Of a stretch of DNA of 32,736 nt, positions 17,100 through 31,650 are shown one piece after another; the first letter of the stretch is position 1, and each line of letters starts with the position of its first letter. The stretch lies in the NCBI GenBank assembly GCA_902803035.1, contig CADCON010000009.1, positions 1-32,736 on the forward strand, written 5' to 3'. This DNA is from an uncultured Ruminococcus sp. (GTDB lineage: Bacteria; Bacillota; Clostridia; Oscillospirales; Acutalibacteraceae). The notes under the pieces are model-generated. The model was not told the origin of the DNA, made no database searches, and saw only the letters and a program-made list of their open reading frames with translations. The position numbers and the translations under genes were made by a program.

Positions 17100-17150
17100 C
17101 GCCCGACTCATTCGCGCTTGATTCTAAACATTCACTATCGGGGAAAGAAT

Positions 17151-18041
17151 ATGGAAGATAACATCACCATTCAATATGATCACACGGAAGAATCCCCGGA
17201 GATTCAGATCTCCCTGCAGAACGTCTTCTACGAATATGAAAGCACCGACGAATCTCCGCCCAAGGAGGTGCTGCACGGCATCTCCATCGACATCCGTCAG
17301 GGGGAATTCGTCGCGCTTCTCGGACACAACGGCTCCGGGAAGTCCACAATCGCCAAGCACATGAACGCTATTCTTCTTCCCAGCGGCGGCAAGGTGTTCG
17401 TCGCCGGCATGGATACCGCCGATGAGGCTCTTCTCACCGACATTCGACGCACGGTGGGAATGGTGTTCCAGAACCCGGACAATCAGCTCGTCGCCACCAT
17501 CGTTGAGGAAGACGTCGCCTTCGGCCCTGAAAATCTCGGCGTTCCTTCCGACGAAATGCGGAAGCTGGTTGACGACGCCCTCAAGGCGGTGGGAATGTAC
17601 GAATACCGCCGCCACGCCCCCCATAAGCTCTCCGGCGGTCAGAAGCAGAGGGTTGCTATCGCCGGCATCATTGCCATGCGCCCGAAATGCATCGTCTTTG
17701 ACGAACCGACCGCCATGCTTGACCCGCGGGGACGGCAGGAGGTTATGGACGCGATCGACAATCTGGTGAGAAATCTCGGCATCACCGTCATTCTGATCAC
17801 CCATTACATGGATGAAGCCGCCAGAGCCGACCGCGTGATCATTGTCAACGACGGAAATCTGCTCACCGAGGGCAAACCAAAAGACGTGTTCAGCCACATT
17901 GATATGCTGCGGGAGCATCATCTCGATGTACCACAGGCAACCGAGCTGGCGCAGTATCTCCGCGCAATGGGCTATGACATTCCCGACGACGTTCTCACAC
18001 CGGAAGAATGCGCCCGCGCCATCATGAACGCCCGCCGCTGA
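17151..18041 (+). CDS. ecfA1: Energy-coupling factor transporter ATPase EcfA1
   Basis: ORF 17118 (TTG) trimmed to ATG 17151, with GGGGAAAG upstream. GHNGSGKST, QNPDNQ (Q-loop), LSGGQKQRVAIAG, IVFDEPTAMLD, ITH. Followed by ecfA2 and ecfT. Confidence 0.9.
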   Translation: MEDNITIQYDHTEESPEIQISLQNVFYEYESTDESPPKEVLHGISIDIRQGEFVALLGHNGSGKSTIAKHMNAILLPSGGKVFVAGMDTADEALLTDIRRTVGMVFQNPDNQLVATIVEEDVAFGPENLGVPSDEMRKLVDDALKAVGMYEYRRHAPHKLSGGQKQRVAIAGIIAMRPKCIVFDEPTAMLDPRGRQEVMDAIDNLVRNLGITVILITHYMDEAARADRVIIVNDGNLLTEGKPKDVFSHIDMLREHHLDVPQATELAQYLRAMGYDIPDDVLTPEECARAIMNARR

Positions 18042-18192
18042 GCCATTTTTTTGCAAGCCCCTATCGGGCTTCCATTTACTCATTATCAGGAATACGCCGG
18101 AGAAGCCCCCGCCTGTTCGCCTCCGCAGGAACGCGGCAGGAAGCGGCGAGGAAATCGATTCGGCGTTTCCTTCACCACCCGGAGGTTTTGCC

Positions 18193-19131
18193 ATGGGAAT
18201 TATTGAAACACACGATCTGCGCTTTGTCTACGGCAAAGGCACTCCCTTTGAAAAGGTCGCGCTGGACGGCGTGAGCATTTCGATTGAACAGGGAGATTTT
18301 ATCGGCGTTATCGGACATACAGGTTCGGGCAAATCCACGCTTGTACAGCTTCTCAACGGACTTCTCCGCCCCGCGTCGGGACAGATTCTTCTCAACGGAA
18401 GCGATATCTGGGCAAAGCCGAAAAAAATCAGAAATGTGCGCTTTGAAGTCGGTCTGGTATTCCAGTACCCCGAATACCAGCTCTTTGAGGAAACCGTCTA
18501 CAAGGATATTGCGTTCGGTCCCCTTAACAAGGGTATCAAAAACAAGGACGAGCTGGACAGAATTATCCGCACCGCGGCCGAATTTGCCGGATTGAAGGAG
18601 TCGCTGCTGGAAAAATCTCCCTTCGACCTCTCCGGCGGTGAAAAACGTCGCGCCGCCATTGCCGGTGTGATCGCCATGCAGCCCAAGGTGCTGATTCTCG
18701 ACGAGCCGACCGCCGGACTCGATCCCCGCGGCAGGGACCGCATTCTCGACAGAATCCGCGCTTACCGTGAGAAAACCGGCAGCACCGTACTGCTGGTTTC
18801 CCATTCTATGGAGGATATTGCCCGCGTCGCCGACCGCGTGCTGGTCATGAATCACGGCAGGGTCGAGATGTTCGACGTCACCAAGAATATCTTCAGGCAC
18901 GGAGAAAGACTCTCTGAAATAGGGCTTCGTGTGCCGCAGGTGACGCAGGTCTTCCTGGAACTGAAACATCTGGGCGCGGACGTCCGCACCGACGTCTACA
19001 CAATGGATTTTGCCAAGGGCGTCGCGCTGGATTTTCTCAGCCGCCACGATGCCACCACGGAACAGCCCGACAGACCGCCCGCAGAGAATTCATCTGCCGG
19101 AGAAACGGCGGAAGGAGGTGAGGCACAGTGA
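18193..19131 (+). CDS. ecfA2: Energy-coupling factor transporter ATPase EcfA2
   Basis: GGAGG 8 nt upstream. GHTGSGKST, QYPEYQ, LSGGEKRRAAIAG, LILDEPTAGLD, VSH. C-terminal tail is about 35 aa and rich in P, E and A. Confidence 0.9.
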   Translation: MGIIETHDLRFVYGKGTPFEKVALDGVSISIEQGDFIGVIGHTGSGKSTLVQLLNGLLRPASGQILLNGSDIWAKPKKIRNVRFEVGLVFQYPEYQLFEETVYKDIAFGPLNKGIKNKDELDRIIRTAAEFAGLKESLLEKSPFDLSGGEKRRAAIAGVIAMQPKVLILDEPTAGLDPRGRDRILDRIRAYREKTGSTVLLVSHSMEDIARVADRVLVMNHGRVEMFDVTKNIFRHGERLSEIGLRVPQVTQVFLELKHLGADVRTDVYTMDFAKGVALDFLSRHDATTEQPDRPPAENSSAGETAEGGEAQ

Positions 19132-19946
19132 TTTCCGATATCACCATAGGACAGTTCATGCCGGGGCGTTCCTTCATTCACAAGCTCGACCCGCGCATGA
19201 AGATCATTCTCATGACGGTCATCATTGTCTTTATCTTCCTCGCCAAAAATCTTTTTTCAATGGGGGCTATGGTCGGACTGGTCATCTTGACAGTCATTCT
19301 CTCGCGCGTTCCGCTCAGAATGTACTTCAAGGGGCTGAAAGCCATCTGGTTCCTTGTCTTCTTCACCGCCTTGCTGAATATGCTCTACATCAGGGGGGAG
19401 CATATCGTCTTTCAGTACCGCTCGCTCACCATTTATGAGGAAGCCCTCTGGCAGAGTGGATTCGTGGCGGTCAGGCTTGTGCTGATCGTGCTGATCAGTT
19501 CCATGCTGACTTACACCACCTCCCCCACTGACCTCACCGCCGCCATTGAACGGCTTCTCGCGCCGCTCAAGCTCTTCCGTGTGCCGGTGCATGAGCTTGC
19601 CATGATGATGACCATCGCGCTGCGGTTCATTCCCACCCTTCTCGAAGAAACCGAAAAAATCATGAACGCGCAGAAAGCGCGCGGCGCGGACCTTGAAAGC
19701 GGAGGTATCATCAAGCGGGCGAAGGCACTGATTCCCATTCTCATTCCCCTCTTTATCTCATCCTTCCGCAGGGCGTTTGAGCTTGCCACCGCCATGGACT
19801 GCCGCTGCTACACAGGCGGCAAGGGCCGCACCCGCCTGAATGTCCTGAAATACCGCTTCCGCGATGTTTTCGCGTTCCTGCTGATGGGCGGGATCTGCGA
19901 GGGCATTCTCTACCTCAATACCCTCGCGCCTTCGCTTGTCCGCTAG
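19128..19946 (+). CDS. ecfT: Energy-coupling factor transporter transmembrane component EcfT
   Basis: GTGA overlap with ecfA2. ITIGQFMPGRSFIHKLDPRMKI, multiple TM helices, and the coupling-helix region ALRFIPTLLEETEKIMNAQKARG. Confidence 0.9.
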   Translation: MISDITIGQFMPGRSFIHKLDPRMKIILMTVIIVFIFLAKNLFSMGAMVGLVILTVILSRVPLRMYFKGLKAIWFLVFFTALLNMLYIRGEHIVFQYRSLTIYEEALWQSGFVAVRLVLIVLISSMLTYTTSPTDLTAAIERLLAPLKLFRVPVHELAMMMTIALRFIPTLLEETEKIMNAQKARGADLESGGIIKRAKALIPILIPLFISSFRRAFELATAMDCRCYTGGKGRTRLNVLKYRFRDVFAFLLMGGICEGILYLNTLAPSLVR

Positions 19947-20030
19947 GGAAACGCTGAAGAAGTCGGTTCCCGCACCGCTCAATACCGTATCCTCGCGGCG
20001 TTGCCTGCCCGCGTACATTACATTAACACA

Positions 20031-20070
20031 AAAAAACCTGCTTCCGTTTGCTTCGGAAACAGGTTTTTTC
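20031..20070. terminator. Bidirectional intrinsic terminator between convergent ecfT and the pilus operon
   Basis: AAAAAA-CCTGCTTCCG-tttgctt-CGGAAACAGG-TTTTTT: 9 of 10 bp stem (20037-20046 / 20054-20063), 7-nt loop, with A6 on one side and T6 on the other. Confidence 0.75.
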
Positions 20071-20145: not shown

Positions 20146-22062
20146 TCAGAACAGCACATACTGGGAGAAGATCACATTCGGAGACTGCGGACGGAATCCT
20201 GTCAGCTCGCAGCGGACGGTGACCCTCTTGCTGCCGCCTATGGTGCAGGTGAAAAGCGTGAGGTCGTAGTCCGAATGCTTCATTTCCTCAATGGCGTTGG
20301 GCACCAGCTCGGTGACTTCCCTCACCCTGTAGGTGAATACATCGCCATTCAGTGCCGTCACGGTAATCTCGTCGTTTTGGGTGAGATTCTTCAGCTTGCC
20401 GAAATGGGACTGGTAGTTATGCCCGCAGATCACCAGATCATCGGTGTACGCCGAGCCTGCATAGCGGCAGGGAGAACGGCGCAGTCCGGGATAGCTCCAC
20501 ACATTTCTGACCGGAAGCTCCAGCGAAAGCGAGGGAATTTCCAGAACCGCCGCGAAATCGGCTCCCTGATAAGTCTTCACAGGCATATCGGTGGTGACCG
20601 AACGGCTGTTGTCCGGCGCGATTCCGGACTGATCGGAGTTCCCGTTTCTGTCGGGAATGAACCGTACCACGCCGACGCATTCTTCCGCCACATCAGAGCC
20701 CGCTCTCATGTCGTCCCAGGAATTGTACAGCACAAGGCAGACCGCCGAGGATACCAGCACAATGCCCGCAAGAAGAACCAAGCCGCTCCGGGCGTCCTTC
20801 TTGTCGGATTTCTTCTTTCTGCCCATGAAGACGCCTGCCATGAATACCGCGAATCCCAGAATCGCCAGTACCGGCACGGGCCACCACAGCATTCCCGTCT
20901 GGGGAAGGATCGGGTCCTTCTTCTGTGTGTCGCTCCCGCCGGGTGAATTCGACGAGGTCGGCGTCTGTGAAGATCCGGAAGGGGTATTGGACGAGCCGGA
21001 GGGTGTATCCGACGAGCCGGAAGGTGTATCCGACGAGCCGGAAGGTGTATCCGACGAGCCGGAGGGTGTATCCGACGAGCCGGAGGGTGTATCCGATGAG
21101 CCGGAAGGTGTATCCGGCTCGTCTGAGGGTGTGCTGGAAGATTCCTCCGGCGGATCGTTGGCTCTCCAGATCGCGTAAACCGTGTATTCCCTGATATCGG
21201 GATAGAATGGCATGGTAGTATAGCCTTCGTCAGCCTCCGGGTCAATATTCCATCCCTCGAAGGTATAACCCGCCGCTTCCGGCTCAGGATCCATCGTCAG
21301 CCTGTAGCTGTTGTACTGCGACGCGCCGCTGCTTCCCCTGACATATCTGATGAGTTCGGTTTCCACCAGCAGCTTTCCGCTGTCAGCCTTGAATATTTCG
21401 GTAAAATCAGCCTGTGCATACGGCATATGCGTGACTGTCGCGCCGCCGATCCGCTCATTGTTGTCGCTGTAATGGATCACGTACTGTTTCGACATAAACT
21501 GCGCCTTGGGGACTACCGTGACGTCATAGCGCCACACGTCCTGCGGCTCAGTGCTCTGGGGAAGATCCCCGAAGAAGGTCGGAAGGCTTACCAGAAACGG
21601 TACGGAGGAATAGGTGTCCTCGTTGGCAAGCTCCAGCGGGTCGCTCGCCACCAGATATATGCCGGTGGAAAGGCGGTCGCCTTCCTCGCTCCTGAATTGA
21701 AGCTGTCCGTTGTCGCCGGTCACGCCCGTGCGCTTCGGCTCCACGCCGGATTCTTCGCTCCTCGCCAATGTGAGCATCTGGAGCGCGACGGTTGCCTGAT
21801 CCTGGTTCCGGTCATACACGCCAGCGAACGGCGCATTAAACCGGAAGGAGCCGGATTTGGTGACGTCGCCGACACGGTATAGATAGAAGGTCGCGCCTTC
21901 TATTGGCTCGTTATTATAGAGATATTGCAGCGTCAGCGTGGTATTTCTGGCTGTGTCTACAATTTCCATGGGATTCGGGTCCGCCGCCACCCGCAGCGCA
22001 AAGACGGAAAGCAGCAGCAGCAGCGACAGACTGATCGACACACTTCTTCTGATTTTTTTCAT
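20146..22062 (-). CDS. Pilin-like LPQTG surface protein fused in frame to a sortase catalytic domain
   Basis: Single 638-codon ORF. Signal peptide (aa 1-27). Pilin D1/Cna-B-like segment (ATFYLYRV, DNGQLQF, GIYLVAS, PFLVSLP). Pilin motif WRYDVTVVPK (K186). Listeria-Bacteroides-repeat-like GYTFEGW...YTVYAIW. (SDTPSGS)x7 stalk. LPQTG (aa 386-390, nt 20893-20907). TM MLWWPVPVLAILGFAVFMAGVFM. Basic GRKKKSDKKDAR. Second TM GLVLLAGIVLVSSAVCLVLY. Sortase domain with VICGHNY (His), LTLFTC (Cys606) and RVTVRC (Arg). Confidence 0.8.
   Translation of the reverse strand: MKKIRRSVSISLSLLLLLSVFALRVAADPNPMEIVDTARNTTLTLQYLYNNEPIEGATFYLYRVGDVTKSGSFRFNAPFAGVYDRNQDQATVALQMLTLARSEESGVEPKRTGVTGDNGQLQFRSEEGDRLSTGIYLVASDPLELANEDTYSSVPFLVSLPTFFGDLPQSTEPQDVWRYDVTVVPKAQFMSKQYVIHYSDNNERIGGATVTHMPYAQADFTEIFKADSGKLLVETELIRYVRGSSGASQYNSYRLTMDPEPEAAGYTFEGWNIDPEADEGYTTMPFYPDIREYTVYAIWRANDPPEESSSTPSDEPDTPSGSSDTPSGSSDTPSGSSDTPSGSSDTPSGSSDTPSGSSNTPSGSSQTPTSSNSPGGSDTQKKDPILPQTGMLWWPVPVLAILGFAVFMAGVFMGRKKKSDKKDARSGLVLLAGIVLVSSAVCLVLYNSWDDMRAGSDVAEECVGVVRFIPDRNGNSDQSGIAPDNSRSVTTDMPVKTYQGADFAAVLEIPSLSLELPVRNVWSYPGLRRSPCRYAGSAYTDDLVICGHNYQSHFGKLKNLTQNDEITVTALNGDVFTYRVREVTELVPNAIEEMKHSDYDLTLFTCTIGGSKRVTVRCELTGFRPQSPNVIFSQYVLF
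20975..21121 (-). repeat. Seven tandem 21-bp repeats encoding the (S-D-T-P-S-G-S)n stalk
   Basis: Plus-strand units CCGGA(A/G)GGTGTATCCGACGAG at 20975, 20996, 21017, 21038, 21059, 21080 and 21101. The inner units differ by 0-2 nt and the outer units are more diverged. Confidence 0.95.
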
Positions 22063-22101: not shown

Positions 22102-22917
22102 TTATGCTTTATGAATTTTTGTAGCCGCGTATGAAATCATTAGTATCAACAAAAGTCCCGCCAGCGCAATCATTACCGGGTTTCCGTAGAGCATATCCAC
22201 CAACGAGCTGTCCTCGGCAGCCTGCCGCGTTTCGTCGCCGGAGATCCGCCGTCCCCGCACAAGCAGCCTGTGAGTGTTGACCCCATAGGGCGTACAGGTG
22301 ACGAGCGTACAGTAATCCTGCCCCGGCTGAATTCTGAGGGCGTCGGTTTCGTCCGGCCTGACCACCAGAATGTTGTCAACCTCGTAGGTCAGCGTCCGTC
22401 CGAGCGTGGTCAGCGTGAATCTGTCGCCTTTTCTCAGCTTATCAAGATCGGTGAGCAGCTTGGCACTGGGAACCCCCGTGTGCCCCGTGAGGACGCAATG
22501 GGTGCTTTCGCCGCCCACGGGGAGCGAACTGGAGGGAAGATGCCCGATGTAGCTCTCCAGCGTCGCCGCGTCCGTGCCATGATACACCGGCAGGCGGCAG
22601 TTGATGGCGGGTATTTCCACATAAGACATCATACCGTCGCCGGAGATATTCAGCAAGTATTCGTAATCCGACGCGGAAACCGAGGTCGGTTCCCTGTCAA
22701 TGCCGGTGAGATACAATGCCCTGTTGAATTCCTCCGCGCGGCTGAGTTCCCTGTCGCAATCGCCGCTTTCCATGGCGTCCACATTGTCGGCGTACCGGCT
22801 GATGGCTTCGGAACTGCCGCGCTCGCTGAGGTAATTGCTGACTGACGGATAGAGGAACAGGGAGAGTCCCGTCAGTATTATCAGAGCAATAAGTATGGCG
22901 CTTATTCCTTTTTTCAT
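22102..22917 (-). CDS. srtC: Class C (pilus-assembly type) sortase
   Basis: N-terminal TM (ILIALIILTGLSLFLYP), VEIPAINCRLPVYHG, THCVLTGHTG (His), DYCTLVTCTPYGVNTHRLLVRGRR (TLVTC Cys and Arg), and a C-terminal second TM (VMIALAGLLLILMISY), a typical class C feature. AAGGAGAG Shine-Dalgarno upstream. Confidence 0.85.
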   Translation of the reverse strand: MKKGISAILIALIILTGLSLFLYPSVSNYLSERGSSEAISRYADNVDAMESGDCDRELSRAEEFNRALYLTGIDREPTSVSASDYEYLLNISGDGMMSYVEIPAINCRLPVYHGTDAATLESYIGHLPSSSLPVGGESTHCVLTGHTGVPSAKLLTDLDKLRKGDRFTLTTLGRTLTYEVDNILVVRPDETDALRIQPGQDYCTLVTCTPYGVNTHRLLVRGRRISGDETRQAAEDSSLVDMLYGNPVMIALAGLLLILMISYAATKIHKA

Positions 22918-22953: not shown

Positions 22954-25900
22954 TTACTTCTTCAGATATTTCAAAAAGTCGGAGAAATCCGAGAGATCAA
23001 GATCCGCGTCCGCTGTGCGGAGCTTCCGCTTCCTGCTGTCTGACGGCATGAGCCTGAACGCAATGAGCATTCCGCCCGCGACGAGCAGGAAGAGTCCTGC
23101 CGCGATGAAAAGAAGGGTTCCGGATCCTCCTGTTCCAGGAAGCAGCGGACCGGTGTAGCGATTGGTGATTTTGAGCGAGCAGGTGGACTCATCGATTTCA
23201 TAGGAGGAATCGTAATTGTCCACGCTGACTTCGCTGATATGATACTGGTAGTAGACGATGGTTTCTTCCTCTCCGCTCACGATTCTGTCGGCTGCCTTTC
23301 TGTCCTTCAGAACCTTCTGCCACGCGGTCGTCCACGCGGAGGAATCGGAAGCCACAATGGTGATGGTTTCGGTCGCCACCACGGGCTTGCCCGGATCTTC
23401 CATCGTGAGCAGCGACGGCGGAACGGTGGAGCCGTAATTGAGCTGCCGGATGGTCAGGGTGATCTCTTCCGGACGGGAATCGAGGAAGATGAAGTCCTTC
23501 CACACCTTGTTGACCGTAATGTCAACCGGCGTGTCGCAAGGATCCTTGAGATCCACTGTGATGGGAGTGTCGCCCACAATGTTGTCATCAAGCGCCGTGT
23601 CGAGCATCAGAACCGCCATTGCTGGAGACACGTATGCCTTGAGCGGACGGCTCGCGCTGCCGGAAGCGTTATCCTCGGTCGCGTCCTTGAAATCCTCATG
23701 GACGGTGATATCGCCGAGATGCTCCACGATGTAGCGGTTGCAGGATTCGCCGTTGACGGTGACATTCTCGCTTTCCTTGTCGGCGATTCTGGCAGCGTTT
23801 TCCTTCTTGATCATGGTATATCCGCCATTGTCCGCACGGTAAACGCTGAAGCTGTTGCTGTAGGCTTCCGGTTCCCCGCCATCCGCCTCATGATAGCCTT
23901 CGAGGATTTCAATGGTCCTGCTGCGGGTGTTGGTGAAGCCTGTGAAGGGACCGACCTTGGAGGGCTGCCCTTCCCCGGCGGGAGGTGTGCCGCGGATCAC
24001 GTCGCACAGCTCGGTGCTGCAATAGTCGATCACACCCGCGTCATTATAGCCGATAAAGCCGCCGGCATAGCCCAGTTCGTCCACACCGTCCTCTTCGTCA
24101 GTCGCGCGTCCGGCGTAGATATTGTAGCCGTCCGGCACGCCCTTGACGGTGGAATGGGTGAATTCGGCGCGGTTGCCCTCGATCAGCGTAACCGAGATGT
24201 CGGGGGCGTTTTCCTCGTCGATTCCGTTCTCGTCGCAGGGAAGCTTGACGGTCGATGAGCCGATGGTGATGATCGCCGCGTCACGCGCGCCGTTGTATTG
24301 CTCGTCATTCTTGGAAAGCGCGACGCTGATCTTCAGACCAAAGAGGTTGACGGCAGCCACATTGCCCTCCGAGAACACCTGAAGCCCCAGAAGATCGCCG
24401 CTCGCGTTGAAGAAATCCGCGCGCTCCGCCTGATCGAGGTACAGTCCCCGCACCAGCACGTCGACCACCTTGACCAGAATGCCGGTCAGACCGGAGTCAA
24501 TCGCAATGTCAACCAGATAATTGAGCGCGGATCTGCCGGCAAAGCCGCCCGCGTTCTGGGTGCTCCACGCAAACTTGAATTGATCCACGGCGCATTCGTC
24601 AAAATGCGCCATATCGGCATAGCCCACAAAGCCTGCCGCGCAGGAGCCTTTCACGTCGCCGCTGTGCCCGTTGGCCACCTTCGTCTGGATATTGGTGGTT
24701 CTGGTGACAAAGCCGTTGGTAAAGCCGGTCACCGTACAATTCCGGAAGACCGAGCCGGAAACATTGAGCAGTTCCGCGCTGATATTCAGGTCGCCGAGAC
24801 CGAGTCCGTCGAGAGTCGTTTTCAGGGGATCTTCGGGATCCGGTTCCTCGCCTTCCTCGTTCTCTTCGGAGGGCTGAATGCCGAGGGAATCCTCGCCAAT
24901 GCCGCTGCTGGTGCCGCTGAGACCGACGAAGCCCGCCGCGTAATTGGGCGCCTGCGCAAAATTGAGAGTATCGACGGAGGAATTCTCCACCGTGCCGTTC
25001 ATCATCGCGCCGCCGAATCCGCCCGCCGCGCCGCTGAGATTGAGATTGCCGATCGAGCCACGCAGCGACTGGTCGTGAGCTACGATCATAATGCCGTCCT
25101 CAACGCCCGAAACCGTCGCGTGATAGATGTAGGTGCGGAAAATATCGAGTACGCTGATGTCTTCGGTCTGGAGCAGGTGAAGGATATTGGTATTGCCGTC
25201 CTTATCGCCCACTTCGGCGACGCTGCCGACATGAGCCAGTCCGAAGAAGCCGCCCGCGTAATAGGCCGCCGAAACGCCGCGCAGATCGCTGACAATCAGC
25301 GTGCGTTCGGGCGTATTCTTCGCTCCGAAGACCGTCGCTTCGGAGGAGCCGACAAAGCCACCGGCGCAATAGGCGTATTGCGTTTCGTTGTTGCTGTCCT
25401 TGTATTCGCCGTCCACGACAATGCCCCATTCGGTACCCGGAACGCCGGACACCTCCGCCTTGCCGATGACCGTAATGGTCGCGTCAAGTGCGTTCACAAG
25501 CTGCGAGGGATTGCTGATCACGGTGTCGAGAAGCCCCTGTATGAGGCCGTTGGAAGCGTCGCTGTCATCCGCGTTGGCAACGGAAGCCGCTGTGGTCTTG
25601 CCCGCAAAGCCGCCGATGCAGTTCCTGCCGGTGACGGTCTTGCAGTTTCTCACCCACACGCCAAGCTCCGGAATCTGAACCTCGCCGTCGACGCGTCCGT
25701 CTGCGCGGGTGCCGAGCTGGCCGCCGTAGCAGCCGCCGACAAAGCCGCCCGCCATACCGCAATCCACGCTGATGGTCTTGGTGACCGCGTCGTCGCCCTC
25801 GCCCGAAATGATTTTCTCGAAGGTGGGGAGTCCATCCGACCGCACAACCAGTCCGTTCTGGTAGCCGGTCACGCCCGATTCAAAGACAACCGGAGTGAGA

Positions 25901-28900
25901 ACGTCCGCCACCTTGAGAAGGTTATCCAGCGCGAGATCAAGACCCAGAATATTGACCTCACCGAATTCCACGAGTCCTTTGGTGATGACTTCGCCCGCGT
26001 AGCCGCCGGCCGCCCGGTAGGCACTGACAAGCTTGGCGTGGCTGGCGTTACCATAGCGTATGACGCCGCTGTGCATCGCGCCGGCATAACCGCCCGCGCA
26101 GCCGCCGTAGGTGGTGAAAACGCCGTCGTCGTATTCGTTACGGCCGGCAACCGCGTGATAGCCGTAGGTGAACTGGCTGAAGGCTTCCCTGAGCTGATCC
26201 TCATTGTCAAAAGTACCGAGAGCGATCAGGCTGCTCAGCTCGTTCGCTTCGGGAGCCGCGCTGCCCTTTGCCGCGACATAGGTGAGCCATTTATTCCATG
26301 TTTCCAGATCCATCTCTTCGAGAGGGCCGAAAACATTGGCGTTTTCGATGGTGGGATAGACAGCGTCGAGAGCCTCCAGCAGGTTATCCGCGCTGATGAT
26401 TCCGCCAAGAAGCGAAAGATTGCCCGATTTTGCCGTGCTGCCCGCTTCCATGAGACCCACATAGCCGCCGGCGTATTCCGCGCCGTAGACCGAGCGGATT
26501 CTCACCGCGTCACAGTCGCGCTTGTCGCCGGAATAATTCTCTTCTCCCAGCCACGGTTCGGAGCTGTTGCCCCAGATCTGTCCGCCGGAGCTGTGTCCGA
26601 CATAGCCGCCCGCAAAGCCGCGCGCCTGGGGCGTATTCACGCCGCGTCCGTCGGACAGGCTCTGCGCTCTGACCACACCGCCGCAGGGGATGCAGGTAGT
26701 AACACTGTTGTAAACCGTCGGAATGAACGCCTGCACCAGCTTCAGCGTGTCGCCGTCAATGATAGTGCTGACAATATCCGAAAGGGTGGCAGGCTCCTCC
26801 GGCTCTTCGGGATTCTCGTCTGCCTGCGGCGTATGCTCCACGTCCAGAATGTCCGCGACGTCGCCGGGCAGCATTTCGCCCGCGTAGCCGCCGGAAGCAA
26901 TCTCTCCGATGATGTAGGAGAATTTGTAGGAATTGCCGTCCTGAATATGCGCGCCGCCGATCTGACCGGCATAACCGCCCGCGTAGCCGAAGCCCGATGT
27001 GTCGTAGTTTTTGTCACCGAGATTCACGTGACTTGACGCGAGCACCGAGAAGCCGCCCGGCAGTCCGTAAACGTTGGAATGCTCGATGGTGGTCACCACC
27101 ACGTCCAGCCCGCTGAGAAGCTGCGTGCTGGTGAGCGATTCATGCATGAGGCTGATGCTGTCGCCCAGCGCGCGGGCGGAACCGACATTCATGCAGCCGA
27201 TGTAGCCGCCGGCGTATTCCGCGCCCGCGACCGAGTAGGGAACGGTGTCCCAGCCGGGGGTGAAATCCATGTATTCTGTACCGTCGCTGTCCTCCAGATT
27301 CGCGGGAATCTTGTCGGGGCACCGGCGCTTGAGACTCCTGACATGACAATGGGAAACCTCCATGCCGCTGCCATAGCCGATGTAGCCGCCGGCGTATCCC
27401 TTGGAGGAAGGCGAATTTTCATCGTCAATGTATGCCGCCAGAACGGTGAATCCTTTCTCCGAATACACGCCCGCGTACCAGAGCTTGGGCAGATAGGCGT
27501 TGGTAATGCTGGCAATGCCGGCGATGTCCACCTTGACATTCTTGTTGAGAAGTCCCAGACCGCTGCCGCCTTCACGCTCCAGCGCGCCGGAGAACACCTT
27601 GCCGCCAAAGCCGCCGGCGAATTTGCCGCCCTCCACATGGTCGATATTGTAGACTGCGTAGGGGCTGTTCTGCACCGCCTGCATTTCCTTGGAATCGATA
27701 TTCAGCGTGCCGCTGCGGAATTCGCCCGCGAAGCCGCCCGCCGCGTTGCCCTTGACATAGCCGCCGTCAAGGAAGGTGACGTCGCATCTTTCCAGCTTGG
27801 GAATGATGTCCAGTCCCAGTGAAATAAGCTGTCCGACGTCGAGAACCGTCACCGCCTGTTCGCCGACCGAACCTCCGCTGACTGTTTCATTGCCTACGCT
27901 GATGCCCGAAAGGTCGCCCGCGGCACAATGACCCACAAAGCCGCCTGATCTGCCGCAGCGCATATCCGAGGTGACGCTTCTGAGCCGGCTCACATGACAG
28001 TCGGTCACGGTCGCGCTGGTGCAGTCCCCGAAGAAGCCGCCCGCGCTGTAATCGGTCCGGCCGTTGTCATCCTCGTATTTTCCTGTCGCCTCCACCTCCA
28101 CCGCCAGACCGGAGGAACGATCGTTGACGCGGCAGTCTGTGATCGTGGTGTGAATGCCGTCGGTCATGCCGAGAAGGTCATTGATGGCGAGCAGATTGAT
28201 GCCCAGCAGCGTAAGGCTGAGTCCGTTGCCGCCCACAACCCTATCGGGGCCGGTCGTACCGGCAAAGCCGCCGGCGTGATTATTCGCCTTGACGAGCGTC
28301 ACGTTGTTGACATTCACTCTCGTGATGTCGCCGCCGATGGCAAAGCCCGCCGCGCCGCCGGCAAAATCGCCGGTGGCAATGACCCGGAATCCCGCGCGCT
28401 CTCCGGAGGAATTCTTCTCGCTGTCAATAGTGACGTCCTCCATGCGGAAGGCGAGATGGGATTGCAGACCCAACGTGCTGCCGAGCAGCGTGCCTGTGTT
28501 GGCGGAGCAGAGATAACCCGCGCCGCCGCCCGCAAGGGAGTATTTTCCGTCGATCGCGGGGTGATCGTTTTCGTCCTCCCCGCTGTCGCCTTCCCCGTCA
28601 TTGCCATCTGCGAACGCGCCCGAAGCGATGACCTCCACGAGCTGATCCACCAGAACCGGCTTCGCGGTGACCTCCGGAACCGGAATATTGCCGTCCCTGT
28701 AGCGGGAGAGATCCGCGATCGCGCCGGAATCGTCGATATATACGCCTTCGCCGTAGCCGATCAGACCGCCGGCGATGTTGCCTGAAGTGTGTACGACGAC
28801 CTTGCCCCTGATCTGGCATCCGAGAATGCCGGAATTGGACACGCCGCCCAGTTCGAGAAGTCCCTGGCTTCCCTCATTGCTGAGAAGATTGGTCAGCGCG

Positions 28901-31650
28901 GTCTTGACCGTGCTCAGAAGGTCCGCGTTGACCGGCAGATAATCGGGCAGGCAGAAGCCCGAACCGAGCTGCGCGCTGCCGGTAAATCCGCCCGCGCAGT
29001 CGCGGTGAGCGGTGATGCTGACCGTGCTGTCCGCGTCGATGACGCAATTGATGACGCTGCTGTTGGCCTGAATGCCCGCAAAGCCGCCCAGACTCCAGTT
29101 ACCGGTCAGGATAACAGAGCTGTTCCTTATCTGACACTCCCTGATCTCGCTCTGCGGATAGAGCGTTCCGACCGTAATGCCGAGACCGGAAAGGAGCTGC
29201 TGGATGATATCGTCGCGCGCGACGCCCACAAAGCCGCCGCCGCCGCGTTCCGCGTCCAGCGTGACCGACATATTCCTGACGGCCGACCAGGTCAGCTCCG
29301 TACCGCATATCGAACCGGCAAAGCCGCCCACGCCGTACCTTCCCGCGCCGAATGACAGTGTGCAGTTGTCAACCGTGCAGGCGTCGATCTTGGTTTCGAC
29401 ATATCCGGTGGGAATAATCTGATCAAGATGCAGCACATTCTGGGCGAGAATGGTCACCAGATCGCCCAGACCGATGCCGGGGATCAGATTGAGCACCCAT
29501 GTCAGACCGTCCACCACGCCGCCGAGAACGCTGTCAAGCGCGCTGTAGGTGAGGGTTCCCTGCACATGGCCCACAAAGCCGCCGCAGCCGACGATCTTGT
29601 GCATGTCGCTGCCCTCCTGCACGGTGACGGCTGACCGGACGTTCACCCGCTCCACATAGCAGTCGGAAACCTCCACCTTGCCCACGATCCTGCCCGCGAA
29701 CGCGCCTGTCGCCAGCGCGGTGGGATCCTTCTTGCGGGCATCGAGCAGATCCTGCAGCGTATCGCTGAGATTGATCGACTGCTCCCCGTTGCCGAGATTG
29801 ACGGCAAAATTCAGCAGTCCGTCGGCTACCCAGCCTAGAAGACTGGGCAGTCCTTTGAGAAGGATGCTGATGAAGGTTTCATTGGCGTCCACGTCGGTGC
29901 AGTTGTTGGTTACGGACGCGTCCCTGAGATGAATGTTCCTCACCACGGACGTTGTCCCCGACAGATCAGAATCGTTGTATTTCGCGCTGATCGTGCCGAA
30001 GAATCCGACGCCCATCTGCGAAGCGACGTCGAGTTTTCCGTCCTTCATGATCGGGTTGACGCTGAAATTCGAAATGACCGGCTTGCTGTCCGTGCTGAGA
30101 TTCAGCTCTGTCTTTTCGTCGTTCCACAGGTTGCCGCCGCCGTTCGGCTTCACGCCGTACATCGTGCCGGTAAACATGAGCGGCGCCCAGTCATAGCCGT
30201 CGAGATTGATGTTGCGGAATACGATGTAATTGGCGTCTGTGGCATATTCCAGACGGATGGTGTTATTCGACGGATCCGACAGATTGAGTTTGTTGGTCGC
30301 CGGATCAACCGTGGTGTAGATGGTGCCGCTCAGACCGGTTGTGTCATTGAGCGCGTGATAATTATTTCCTGTGCCGGCCGCGCTGTTGTAGCTGTCAAAC
30401 AGTCTGTCGTCGGTCACGTCCGCGTCGCCGGGATACACCAGCTCCGGGTCACCGTCCGGTTCCCACGGGTCTGTAAGGCGTGATCTCTTCACCTTCAGCT
30501 TGTAGACAGGCCCGTAGACCGCGACGTCTTCCCGGCTGCCGCTGACCGCAATGCCGAGGACTTCCTTTTCACGTCCCCTGTCAATGGCTTTGAGCTGCGC
30601 GGCCGTGCCGATGAGAATGTAATCGGTGCCGTTGATATTGGCTGTCACCTGACCCGCGTAATCCCTGCCGTCGCGGTCGCCGGCGTCGCGGTTGGCATAG
30701 GGCCAGAGAACCTTCGCCCCGCCGCGGATCGCAATGCTTTCGTCCCCCGGCTTCACCGGCGTGAATTCCGACGAAATCACATAGCGGTGGCCTTCGCTGT
30801 AGGTCAGGTATCCAAGCGATTCATCGCCCGGATAGATGAATTGTCCTGTGCCGAATAATTCGGTGCTCCAGTCGTTCGACATCACGGGAATCTCAGCCCT
30901 GTGGCTGTCCGCGAGCGTCATGAGCTGGAATCCGTTCTGCAGGTACACCGTGTCGCTCTCCACGTCGTACAACCGCTGGTTCAGCGCCCCTTTTGCGGGG
31001 CTTTCTTCCTCGCCGGGGTCAGGGTCCTCCCCGTCCCCGTCTTCCTCGCCGTCGCCGGCGTCTTCTCCGTCTCCGGAATTATCTCCGTCGTCGGTTTCCT
31101 CCGTCTTTCCGGCATTCTCCTCCATCTTCCTCGCGGAAGTGAATTCGCCGCTGAAGCCCGCCGGAACATTCCATTGTGTCTGCGCCGGAAGGGAAATGTC
31201 GCCTTCGAGATAATAAACCGCGTCCGCCGCGTACGTCACGGGTTCCCCATTCTGATCCGTGATCTGCGCGCCGCTGCCGACGGTTTCCTCAACGTCGTCC
31301 CCGGTCTTCAGCTCCGCGCCGCTGCCCGCAAGCTGAAGCTGGCGGAAATTGAAGATATGAATCATTCCGCCGCCGTAAAGCCGTTCGGCAGCTTCTTCAT
31401 ACGCCCTGATTGCTTCGGGCGAAGGCTGCTCTTCCGGCTCTTCCTGCGTGACAGGCGCATTGCCGTTCGTGCCGAGATCGACGCTGCCGGTGTAGGTGAT
31501 GTACTGGCCATCTCCGCCGTCCGCCGCGTCGCCTGAAGCGTAAACACTCACTGTCGTGTCCACTGATGTGGCAACCTGCTCCGCAATCGCGGTGATCAGC
31601 GATATGACCAGCAGCAGGGCGAGTGCTCTTGTGCTCCAATGCTTCTTCAT
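22954..31650 (-). CDS. Giant (2,898 aa) LPXTG-anchored surface protein with about 30 GLUG-like GGF/YxG modules and a C-terminal Cna-B-like domain
   Basis: GGGAGG 8 nt upstream of the ATG. Signal peptide MKKHWSTRALALLLVISLITAIA. Acidic D/E/G tract (aa 183-217). YIVFRNINLDGYDWAPLMFTGTMYG entry motif. Repeated AGGFAG / GGFVG / AGGYAG / AGGYIG motifs through roughly nt 24040-30020. Cna-B-like VDITVNKVWKD...YYQYHISEVSVDNY...ITNRY. LPGTG (nt 23128-23142), then TM and charged tail. Confidence 0.9.
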   Translation of the reverse strand: MKKHWSTRALALLLVISLITAIAEQVATSVDTTVSVYASGDAADGGDGQYITYTGSVDLGTNGNAPVTQEEPEEQPSPEAIRAYEEAAERLYGGGMIHIFNFRQLQLAGSGAELKTGDDVEETVGSGAQITDQNGEPVTYAADAVYYLEGDISLPAQTQWNVPAGFSGEFTSARKMEENAGKTEETDDGDNSGDGEDAGDGEEDGDGEDPDPGEEESPAKGALNQRLYDVESDTVYLQNGFQLMTLADSHRAEIPVMSNDWSTELFGTGQFIYPGDESLGYLTYSEGHRYVISSEFTPVKPGDESIAIRGGAKVLWPYANRDAGDRDGRDYAGQVTANINGTDYILIGTAAQLKAIDRGREKEVLGIAVSGSREDVAVYGPVYKLKVKRSRLTDPWEPDGDPELVYPGDADVTDDRLFDSYNSAAGTGNNYHALNDTTGLSGTIYTTVDPATNKLNLSDPSNNTIRLEYATDANYIVFRNINLDGYDWAPLMFTGTMYGVKPNGGGNLWNDEKTELNLSTDSKPVISNFSVNPIMKDGKLDVASQMGVGFFGTISAKYNDSDLSGTTSVVRNIHLRDASVTNNCTDVDANETFISILLKGLPSLLGWVADGLLNFAVNLGNGEQSINLSDTLQDLLDARKKDPTALATGAFAGRIVGKVEVSDCYVERVNVRSAVTVQEGSDMHKIVGCGGFVGHVQGTLTYSALDSVLGGVVDGLTWVLNLIPGIGLGDLVTILAQNVLHLDQIIPTGYVETKIDACTVDNCTLSFGAGRYGVGGFAGSICGTELTWSAVRNMSVTLDAERGGGGFVGVARDDIIQQLLSGLGITVGTLYPQSEIRECQIRNSSVILTGNWSLGGFAGIQANSSVINCVIDADSTVSITAHRDCAGGFTGSAQLGSGFCLPDYLPVNADLLSTVKTALTNLLSNEGSQGLLELGGVSNSGILGCQIRGKVVVHTSGNIAGGLIGYGEGVYIDDSGAIADLSRYRDGNIPVPEVTAKPVLVDQLVEVIASGAFADGNDGEGDSGEDENDHPAIDGKYSLAGGGAGYLCSANTGTLLGSTLGLQSHLAFRMEDVTIDSEKNSSGERAGFRVIATGDFAGGAAGFAIGGDITRVNVNNVTLVKANNHAGGFAGTTGPDRVVGGNGLSLTLLGINLLAINDLLGMTDGIHTTITDCRVNDRSSGLAVEVEATGKYEDDNGRTDYSAGGFFGDCTSATVTDCHVSRLRSVTSDMRCGRSGGFVGHCAAGDLSGISVGNETVSGGSVGEQAVTVLDVGQLISLGLDIIPKLERCDVTFLDGGYVKGNAAGGFAGEFRSGTLNIDSKEMQAVQNSPYAVYNIDHVEGGKFAGGFGGKVFSGALEREGGSGLGLLNKNVKVDIAGIASITNAYLPKLWYAGVYSEKGFTVLAAYIDDENSPSSKGYAGGYIGYGSGMEVSHCHVRSLKRRCPDKIPANLEDSDGTEYMDFTPGWDTVPYSVAGAEYAGGYIGCMNVGSARALGDSISLMHESLTSTQLLSGLDVVVTTIEHSNVYGLPGGFSVLASSHVNLGDKNYDTSGFGYAGGYAGQIGGAHIQDGNSYKFSYIIGEIASGGYAGEMLPGDVADILDVEHTPQADENPEEPEEPATLSDIVSTIIDGDTLKLVQAFIPTVYNSVTTCIPCGGVVRAQSLSDGRGVNTPQARGFAGGYVGHSSGGQIWGNSSEPWLGEENYSGDKRDCDAVRIRSVYGAEYAGGYVGLMEAGSTAKSGNLSLLGGIISADNLLEALDAVYPTIENANVFGPLEEMDLETWNKWLTYVAAKGSAAPEANELSSLIALGTFDNEDQLREAFSQFTYGYHAVAGRNEYDDGVFTTYGGCAGGYAGAMHSGVIRYGNASHAKLVSAYRAAGGYAGEVITKGLVEFGEVNILGLDLALDNLLKVADVLTPVVFESGVTGYQNGLVVRSDGLPTFEKIISGEGDDAVTKTISVDCGMAGGFVGGCYGGQLGTRADGRVDGEVQIPELGVWVRNCKTVTGRNCIGGFAGKTTAASVANADDSDASNGLIQGLLDTVISNPSQLVNALDATITVIGKAEVSGVPGTEWGIVVDGEYKDSNNETQYAYCAGGFVGSSEATVFGAKNTPERTLIVSDLRGVSAAYYAGGFFGLAHVGSVAEVGDKDGNTNILHLLQTEDISVLDIFRTYIYHATVSGVEDGIMIVAHDQSLRGSIGNLNLSGAAGGFGGAMMNGTVENSSVDTLNFAQAPNYAAGFVGLSGTSSGIGEDSLGIQPSEENEEGEEPDPEDPLKTTLDGLGLGDLNISAELLNVSGSVFRNCTVTGFTNGFVTRTTNIQTKVANGHSGDVKGSCAAGFVGYADMAHFDECAVDQFKFAWSTQNAGGFAGRSALNYLVDIAIDSGLTGILVKVVDVLVRGLYLDQAERADFFNASGDLLGLQVFSEGNVAAVNLFGLKISVALSKNDEQYNGARDAAIITIGSSTVKLPCDENGIDEENAPDISVTLIEGNRAEFTHSTVKGVPDGYNIYAGRATDEEDGVDELGYAGGFIGYNDAGVIDYCSTELCDVIRGTPPAGEGQPSKVGPFTGFTNTRSRTIEILEGYHEADGGEPEAYSNSFSVYRADNGGYTMIKKENAARIADKESENVTVNGESCNRYIVEHLGDITVHEDFKDATEDNASGSASRPLKAYVSPAMAVLMLDTALDDNIVGDTPITVDLKDPCDTPVDITVNKVWKDFIFLDSRPEEITLTIRQLNYGSTVPPSLLTMEDPGKPVVATETITIVASDSSAWTTAWQKVLKDRKAADRIVSGEEETIVYYQYHISEVSVDNYDSSYEIDESTCSLKITNRYTGPLLPGTGGSGTLLFIAAGLFLLVAGGMLIAFRLMPSDSRKRKLRTADADLDLSDFSDFLKYLKK

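Follow-up and report, generated by a model that had tools for sequence, protein, structure and literature searches.

An in-frame fusion of a pilin-like LPQTG protein to an unclassified sortase in an uncultured Ruminococcus and its relatives

In this work, we analysed a 32,736-nucleotide (nt) stretch of DNA, hereafter the window, from an uncultured Ruminococcus sp. (contig CADCON010000009.1), in which one gene encodes both a pilin-like sortase substrate and a sortase. This gene is an open reading frame (ORF) of 638 codons plus a stop, which starts with ATG, has no internal stop and occupies positions 20146–22062 of the minus strand, to which all coordinates of the gene and its operon given below refer. 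The operon comprises three co-oriented genes: those of a giant surface protein, presumed to be an adhesin, and of a class C (pilus-specific) sortase come first, and the fusion gene closes it. A preliminary description made from the letters alone had listed in the ORF a signal peptide, a pilin-type domain with a pilin motif, a stalk, an LPQTG signal with its hydrophobic helix and basic tail, a second transmembrane (TM) helix and a sortase domain, and every listed feature is present.

The N-terminal part begins with a signal peptide (amino acids (aa) 1–27, MKKIRR...RVAA/DP; 21982–22062), which is supported by a hydrophobic stretch at aa 4–29 and an invariant A27 before the predicted cleavage site. 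It is followed by a domain resembling the D1 domain of pilins (aa ~37–190; 21493–21954), with the pilin motif WRYDVTVVPK (W177–K186; 21505–21534), where K186 is the presumed acceptor lysine, and by a second domain (aa 192–300; 21163–21489) similar to InlB B-repeats (Flg_new). The next segment is a low-complexity linker of Ser, Thr and Pro (aa 301–380; 20923–21162) containing a tandem repeat at 20975–21116 (21 nt x 6.8, 93% matches) that encodes SSDTPSG units and is likely a hotspot for in-frame length variation. Among orthologues, the linker before LPQTG varies from 0 to ~90 residues.

The tripartite sorting signal is complete. It consists of the conserved LPQTG motif with invariant flanks (aa 386–390; 20893–20907), a hydrophobic part that forms TM1 (aa 391–414; 20821–20892; hydropathy segment 389–416) and a basic RKKKSDKK tail with a net charge of +5, and the fused homologue P0158 matches the corresponding Pfam model PF00746 at its cutoff. 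However, the signal is not at the extreme C-terminus, as 221 more residues comprising TM2 and the sortase extend past the basic tail. The basic loop (aa 415–427, RKKKSDKKDARSG, net +5; 20782–20820), assigned to the cytoplasm by hydropathy and charge, leads to TM2 (aa 428–447; 20722–20781; hydropathy segment 423–449). TM2 aligns with the N-terminal TM helix of the ~200-aa unfused homologues and, on this alignment, is the equivalent of the signal-anchor of stand-alone sortases. It is followed by a juxtamembrane helix (YNSWDDMRAGSD...) and a flexible tether (aa 448–494; 20581–20721), and then by the catalytic domain (aa 495–638; 20149–20580), with the codons of H548, C606 and R613 at 20419–20421, 20245–20247 and 20224–20226. 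The three hydrophobic segments mentioned are the only ones in the protein. The predicted topology, with the pilin and sortase parts outside and the basic loop in the cytoplasm, is self-consistent by hydropathy and by the AlphaFold2 (AF2) models, just as had been proposed. The estimate that the enzyme is tethered about 60 residues from its own T-G bond holds for the exit of TM2 from the membrane, ~58 residues past the bond, whereas the catalytic barrel starts ~105 residues past it.

Several lines of evidence indicate that the fusion is natural. A homology search returned ten full-length homologues of 579–661 aa with 46–53% identity to the window protein over 97–100% coverage (E<=1e-167), and these scores are far beyond chance; two of the fused homologue clusters comprise 80 and 83 members. 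The gene was also recovered independently from a second strain: an assembly of a different sample (ERZ1029111, contig L085) carries a 638-aa ORF identical at 636 of 638 positions and preceded by the same two genes. Furthermore, Enterococcus columbae DSM 7374, a type strain in culture, has a fused homologue (WP_016183573.1, annotated as "sortase domain-containing protein"; locus L081) in several independent assemblies. In the alignment of 11 sequences, the loop between TM1 and TM2 changes in length by whole codons, and a lost stop codon, which had been named as a possible cause of the fusion, finds no trace in the orthologues: none of the fused ones has a stop between the basic tail and TM2. 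KKD, L386, Q388, T389, G390 and LWWPVPVLA are invariant in this alignment, P387 is kept in 10 of the 11 sequences, and L-x-L-Y-N-x-W-D at the exit of TM2 is invariant as well, with N447, W449, D450, R453, A454 and G455 invariant throughout the clade. Since the second strain assembly, the in-frame orthologues at ~50% identity and the several E. columbae assemblies agree, an artefact is not a satisfactory explanation, and the comparison of sequences allows us to regard the ORF as a genuine, selectively maintained gene fusion.

Apparent unfused sisters of the window clade were considered and set aside. A protein called as a "209-aa sortase" (P0029), which looked like a close unfused sister, turned out to be a gene-calling artefact that starts inside TM2 past a frameshift in the linker, and two other candidate sisters (P0027 and P0028) have N-termini and short contigs which suggest that they are pieces of fused proteins of the same clade. 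The frameshift upstream of P0029 (L086, 2560–2900) lies within an NPD-repeat linker and splits the pilin part from an LPQTG-TM-TM-sortase part that is still contiguous. It is either an assembly error within the repeat or a real repeat-mediated disruption, and it serves as a warning about automated gene calls in this family.

The C-terminal half is a sortase by profile, catalytic residues and fold, as the preliminary description had proposed. PF04203 matches aa 507–620 with 57.3 bits against a cutoff of 26.6 (E=1.7e-15), covering positions 1–124 of the 125 in the profile. H548 (CGHNY), C606 (LTLFTC), R613 and R617 are invariant in the 11 orthologues and in 107 aligned family members; the catalytic His and Cys are thus as originally assigned, whereas the catalytic Arg is probably R613 rather than R617, since R613 aligns with the first Arg of the class C motif HRLLVRG. 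An AF2 model of aa 375–638 built from 107 sequences has a predicted local distance difference test score (pLDDT) of 84.2, above 90 in the core, and a predicted template modelling score (pTM) of 0.78. It shows a confident barrel and two good helices, TM1 at 395–416 (pLDDT ~92) and TM2 at 423–466, the latter running on beyond the membrane into a disordered tether at ~474–487 (pLDDT <50). Foldseek matched this model with a probability of 1.00 to class A, C and E sortases and to B. anthracis SrtD, about equally (E ~1e-9; target-normalised TM-score up to 0.76), in agreement with an eight-stranded beta-barrel sortase fold. By these measures, the enzyme seems intact.

At the same time, the enzyme resists classification. 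None of the NCBIfam class models reached its cutoff (class C 29.8 of 160 bits, class E 26.2 of 160, class D 23.1 of 165 and GN 27.4 of 158), and the class A, B and F models gave no match at E<0.01. The best sequence match in the PDB, at 27.6 bits, was to the Ebp class C sortase, with classes A, C, D and E scoring about equally. Because no class model is passed and the PDB and Foldseek scores are about equal across classes, the fused enzyme is, as far as profiles and folds can tell, a sortase outside every curated class.

The pilin half is less clear-cut. The pilin motif is present as described earlier, and W177, Y179, V181, P185 and K186 are invariant in the 11 homologues, but the domain itself scores just below the thresholds of hidden Markov models (HMMs): PF16555 matches aa 47–162 with 22.0 bits against 23.1, and NF033902 (the SpaH/EbpB pilin model) matches aa 40–192 with 34.3 bits against 95. 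Precomputed annotations assign PF16555 to four orthologues (P0002, P0004, P0008 and P0011). A full-length AF2 model from the 11-sequence alignment reached a pLDDT of 56.6, and below 50 in the linker; its Foldseek matches to the SpaA, SpaD, EbpC and EbpB pilins lend weak support to a pilin-like N-terminus. As to the second domain, PF09479 (Listeria-Bacteroides repeat) matches aa 252–297 at 21 bits, below its cutoff, TIGR02543 scores 21.0 against 20.95, and the InlB B-repeat structure 2y5p is a weak match.

To place the fusion among its relatives, we scanned the GTDB genomes (one per species) and found 243 loci with a relative, of which 80 were retrieved for analysis. The two halves are fused in frame at 11 of these (L005–L014 and the E. 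columbae locus L081), and in at least 60 of the 69 unfused loci they are encoded by separate, adjacent genes. The unfused pilins are ~260–460 aa long, keep the W.YDV....K motif and end in LPQTG-(Q/M/V/L)LWWPVP(V/I/L)L-TM-basic tail; the unfused sortases of ~200 aa have a basic N-terminus and a TM helix followed by YNxWDDxRA. In most of the 14 junctions inspected, the stop codon of the pilin gene and the start of the sortase gene overlap by 3–16 nt. The typical unfused operon encodes, in this order, a large LPxTGGxG adhesin (tip), a shaft pilin of ~500 aa with the signal LPSTGG(I/M)GTT(I/L)FY, a class C sortase, the LPQTG-LWWP pilin and the small sortase. The relatives come from metagenome-assembled genomes of rumen and gut labelled Clostridiales, Ruminococcus, Oscillospiraceae and Lachnospiraceae. 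The adjacency, the short overlaps and the repeated fusion argue that the LPQTG-LWWP pilin and the small sortase are a dedicated enzyme/substrate pair.

A wider HMMER search over 1.84 billion cluster representatives gave 9739 matches, of which the best 150 were taken and 147 were newly returned. The LPQTG-TM-basic loop-TM-sortase architecture was found in 43 of these 147 best representatives, in proteins of 260–1553 aa, most of which carry pilin D1 and Cna_B domains as passengers. Two members are more unusual: in P0195 (1553 aa), the cassette is fused to BspA-type leucine-rich repeats and Flg_new repeats, and P0272 (1104 aa) has a Big_2/He_PIG/VWA passenger with an additional PG_binding_1 domain past the sortase. 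The sortase domains of 54 fused and 178 unfused proteins (232 in all) were placed on a neighbour-joining tree, on which Fitch parsimony requires 23 changes between the fused and unfused states, with an unfused root; the tree is crude, and some of its singletons could reflect frameshift artefacts. Even so, fusion is clearly recurrent and, in several clades, stably inherited; it is not a one-off event but a common variant, arising again and again, of a widespread two-gene module.

The sortases of this family also differ in a short segment. Class C sortases carry a lid with a DPF, DPY or DPW pseudo-substrate, and most unfused members of the present family conserve at the corresponding position, ahead of the catalytic barrel and in the region of aa 448–494 of the window protein, the sequence IPDY(I/V)LNP(D/N)MEMP, whose motif differs from DP[FWY] and which is mostly absent from fused members. 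Without correction for kinship, it occurs in 107 of 176 unfused sequences; among fused ones, the counts are 0 of 14 for the clade of the window and 11 of 51 outside it. The segment is possibly a lid or pseudo-substrate for which a tethered substrate leaves no further need.

The class C sortase of the operon (271 aa; 22102–22917), encoded 39 nt upstream of the fusion, matches NF033745 with 247 bits against a cutoff of 160, and a class C gene immediately precedes that of the pilin in almost every related locus. The giant protein (2898 aa; 22954–31650) ends in ...RYTGPLLPGTGGSG-TM-basic tail, with the sorting signal LPGTGGSG; its orthologues, 48–58% identical, are encoded upstream in every fused-clade locus with enough contig. 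It gave no Pfam match at E<0.01, and 23 GG[FY]xG motifs are spread over aa 690–2530. In the lineage of P0009 (L001–L003, contigs from three samples), the class C sortase is reduced to a 117-aa remnant lacking the TM helix and the His region and matching residues 158–268 of the window enzyme (9623–9976 in L001 and in L002, 5394–5747 in L003), and there the fused enzyme may be the only working sortase of the operon.

The types of sorting signal differ within the operon. In backbone and tip pilins, a "triple glycine" LPXTGGXG sets the specificity for class C sortases, whereas basal pilins such as SpaB (LPQTGD) and LrpB (LPQTGE) lack it (PMC5536039). Assembly ends when the anchoring sortase, loaded with a basal pilin, receives the fibre on the pilin lysine and passes it to lipid II (PMC5536039). 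The LPGTGGSG signal thus points to the giant protein as a substrate of the class C sortase. The signal of the fusion, LPQTGMLWW, has no triple-glycine extension, which the tip, shaft and adhesin signals carry, and for this reason the pilin half is best read as a basal pilin, with the small sortase as its cognate enzyme.

Starting from the architecture, conservation, genetic pairing and signal types described above, we favour, with a probability of about 0.6, the view that in the fusion a basal pilin and the wall-anchoring sortase dedicated to it, which does not belong to class C, are connected by a membrane hairpin of two helices. We infer every catalytic step, including the choice between cis and trans, as follows. 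Export, presumably by the Sec route, would place the pilin part and the sortase domain outside, with TM1 and TM2 as a hairpin and the basic loop in the cytoplasm. The class C sortase would cut the LPGTGGSG signal of the adhesin and join its Thr to Lys186, as the triple-glycine rule and the invariant lysine suggest. Cys606 would cut LPQT/G, either within the same chain or in a neighbouring copy, and the pilin with its adhesin cargo would be held on the fused sortase as a thioester. The sortase would then pass the pilin to lipid II, whereby the complex would end covalently attached to the wall, and the Gly390-TM1-loop-TM2-sortase fragment would remain in the membrane. With the shaft pilin lost from the clade of the window, the product should be a basal pilin anchored to the wall and bearing a giant adhesin. 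The amine of Gly390 would stay tethered by the active site, so that re-ligation is expected as a competing reaction as long as no better nucleophile has arrived. The conserved LWWPVP and, at the exit of TM2, YNxWDDxRAG would both lie at the outer face of the membrane, suggesting recognition beyond the pentapeptide. The fusion implies a hard-wired 1:1 ratio of enzyme to substrate, which the unfused relatives presumably approximate by translational coupling of genes with overlapping start and stop codons.

Several points weigh against this interpretation. The pilin domain is borderline, as both HMMs remain below their cutoffs, and in a clade that has no shaft pilin the term "basal" reflects homology and signal type, not a position in a fibre. 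Because no curated class from A to F fits the enzyme, an anchoring role cannot be read from class membership. Where the class C sortase is only a remnant (L001–L003), the small sortase may do more than anchor. Finally, as to whether LPQTG can reach Cys606, the AF2 model of aa 375–638, good for the sortase fold and the TM hairpin, left LPQTG undocked in the active site and with low confidence (pLDDT <60).

A broader, tentative reading, which we hold to be clearly less likely than not, is that LPQTG-TM-loop-TM-sortase is a portable self-anchoring cassette, which would cut its own signal in cis and work essentially as a single-turnover enzyme with a logic reminiscent of autotransporters. The passenger would be delivered to the wall or to a partner, and the enzyme would then be spent or remain as a remnant. 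The unrelated passengers, the repeated fusion and the preferential loss of IPDYxLNP in fused forms fit such a cassette, and in this case the tethered substrate would have replaced an autoinhibitory pseudo-substrate, namely the IPDYxLNP segment.

It is rather unlikely that the fused sortase acts as a pilin polymerase, building a homopolymeric shaft by linking T389 of each copy to K186 of the next, with the role of the class C enzyme confined to placing the giant adhesin at the tip. In favour of it, the lysine of the pilin motif and an LPXTG motif reside in one protein, no separate shaft pilin is found in the clade of the window, and the class C gene of L001–L003 is a remnant. However, relatives with the LPQTG-LWWP pilin and the small sortase already own a shaft pilin with the triple-glycine signal, which the LPQTG signal does not have, and the long disordered linker before LPQTG in many members would be expected to fit poorly into a compact shaft. 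Moreover, if each subunit were cut only by its own fused copy, one enzyme molecule would be spent per subunit.

Slightly less probable still is that the class C sortase itself cuts LPQTG and that the fusion serves to co-deliver or release the small sortase for other substrates. Class C enzymes do process pilin signals (PMC5536039), and the class C gene is the immediate neighbour at nearly every locus. But the LPQTG-xLWWPVPVL signal and the small sortase adjoin in nearly all loci examined and were fused repeatedly, no other LPQTG-LWWP substrate was seen in these loci, and the determinant of class C specificity is carried by the adhesin and shaft pilins of the same operons, not by LPQTG.

We consider it improbable that internal translation initiation yields the sortase half as an additional or the main product, which would turn the fusion into two proteins functionally. 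The unfused relatives show that the sortase can work as a protein of its own, and in the window a TTG codon (Leu428) has GGAG 4 nt upstream. On the other hand, across the 13 fused loci no start with a Shine-Dalgarno sequence is conserved between LPQTG and TM2, in line with the preliminary description, which had seen no convincing one before the internal Met408 or Met413 in the window; in several of these loci the loop contains no candidate start, and a product started at Leu428 would lack the basic N-terminus of stand-alone members. Finally, an error of sequencing or assembly, or a pseudogene of recent origin, although most relatives are two overlapping genes that a single-base indel could fuse and metagenome assemblies contain frameshifts such as that in L086, is very improbable in view of the same ORF in the second strain, the in-frame loop across ~50% divergence, the fused clusters of 80–83 members and the several fused E. 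columbae isolate assemblies.

The proposed basal-pilin anchoring has known counterparts. Like the C. diphtheriae SpaABC and L. rhamnosus GG SpaCBA pili, the present loci combine a tip adhesin, a class C sortase and a lysine-motif pilin with an LPQTG signal. In those systems, however, the anchoring sortase is a general housekeeping enzyme of class A or E with many substrates, and for sortase-dependent pili its gene is "invariably found elsewhere" in the genome (PMC5536039). Here, the small unclassified sortase gene follows, overlaps or is fused to that of one pilin, and the shaft pilin is missing from the clade of the window. What differs from SpaCBA and SpaABC is a dedicated, operon-encoded sortase coupled or fused to a single substrate.

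The statement that no natural substrate-sortase fusion is known to have been described was borne out within the open-access literature, where we found only engineered fusions, although absence there is no proof; the broad reviews of sortases published in 2021 and 2024 are likewise silent on natural fusions. One apparent precedent, a "Rosetta stone" match in the literature, concerned EpsH/CAAX protease fusions rather than sortases. The engineered self-cleaving fusions (BISOP, PMC2901362; a self-cleave display system, PMC10726597) likewise unite a sortase with LPXTG in one polypeptide, and the enzyme cuts its own chain. They differ in using an artificial soluble S. aureus SrtA in the order enzyme-LPXTG-cargo, with release by hydrolysis or glycine, whereas the present fusion is natural and membrane-embedded, has the order cargo-LPQTG-TM-TM-enzyme and presumably ends in transfer to the cell wall.

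Dedicated one-to-one sorting systems, e.g., JDVT-CTERM with its protease (Haft, bioRxiv 10.1101/2023.06.07.544157), are similar in that each locus has one target, enzyme and target are consecutive in an operon and the signal is unusually conserved. Those systems involve other enzyme families and targets at a true C-terminus, and no enzyme-target fusion is mentioned there (bioRxiv 10.1101/2023.06.07.544157). A further parallel is C. perfringens sortase D (CpSrtD, PDB 4D70), a small clostridial sortase tied to an LPQTG-type motif, which was reported to prefer LPQTGS (PMC4498605). However, CpSrtD is not fused, and its match to the fused sortase is marginal (20.5 bits, E=0.003), as is that of the class D model (23 vs 165).

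Sortases are usually regarded as multi-turnover catalysts that encounter substrates while diffusing in the membrane. In the family described here, from gut and rumen Clostridia and one Enterococcus, a dedicated sortase lies beside one pilin and has been fused to it repeatedly, and the fusion serves as a natural "Rosetta stone" that assigns the LPQTG-xLWWPVP signal to an unclassified sortase subfamily. This makes it a tractable system, with E. columbae DSM 7374 as a cultured member, for deciding between cis and trans action of sortases and for learning how pilus assembly is brought to an end by the basal-pilin/sortase intermediate; self-anchoring display cassettes in Gram-positive hosts might also be inspired by it. 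The fused proteins are already in RefSeq and other public databases under generic names such as "sortase" or "sortase domain-containing protein", which points to a systematic gap in annotation.

A few observations concern the surroundings of these loci. Candidatus Cacconaster stercorequi has two modules of class C sortase, LPQTG pilin and small sortase (L045 and L068), ~15 kb apart on JAGHUH010000013.1. The rest of the window, on the plus strand, is occupied by housekeeping genes convergent with the operon, which encode an ATCase-like protein, a HAMP histidine kinase, a class V aminotransferase, RuvB, a phosphoglucomutase, a methyltransferase and EcfA1/EcfA2/EcfT. Past the fusion gene, a hairpin followed by a T-run (20030–20063, minus strand) was recognised by reading the sequence and partly detected on the plus strand as a terminator. 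The genes ecfA1, ecfA2 and ecfT (17118–19946, plus strand) converge on the pilus operon, and this one hairpin, with its A- and T-run flanks, could terminate both units.

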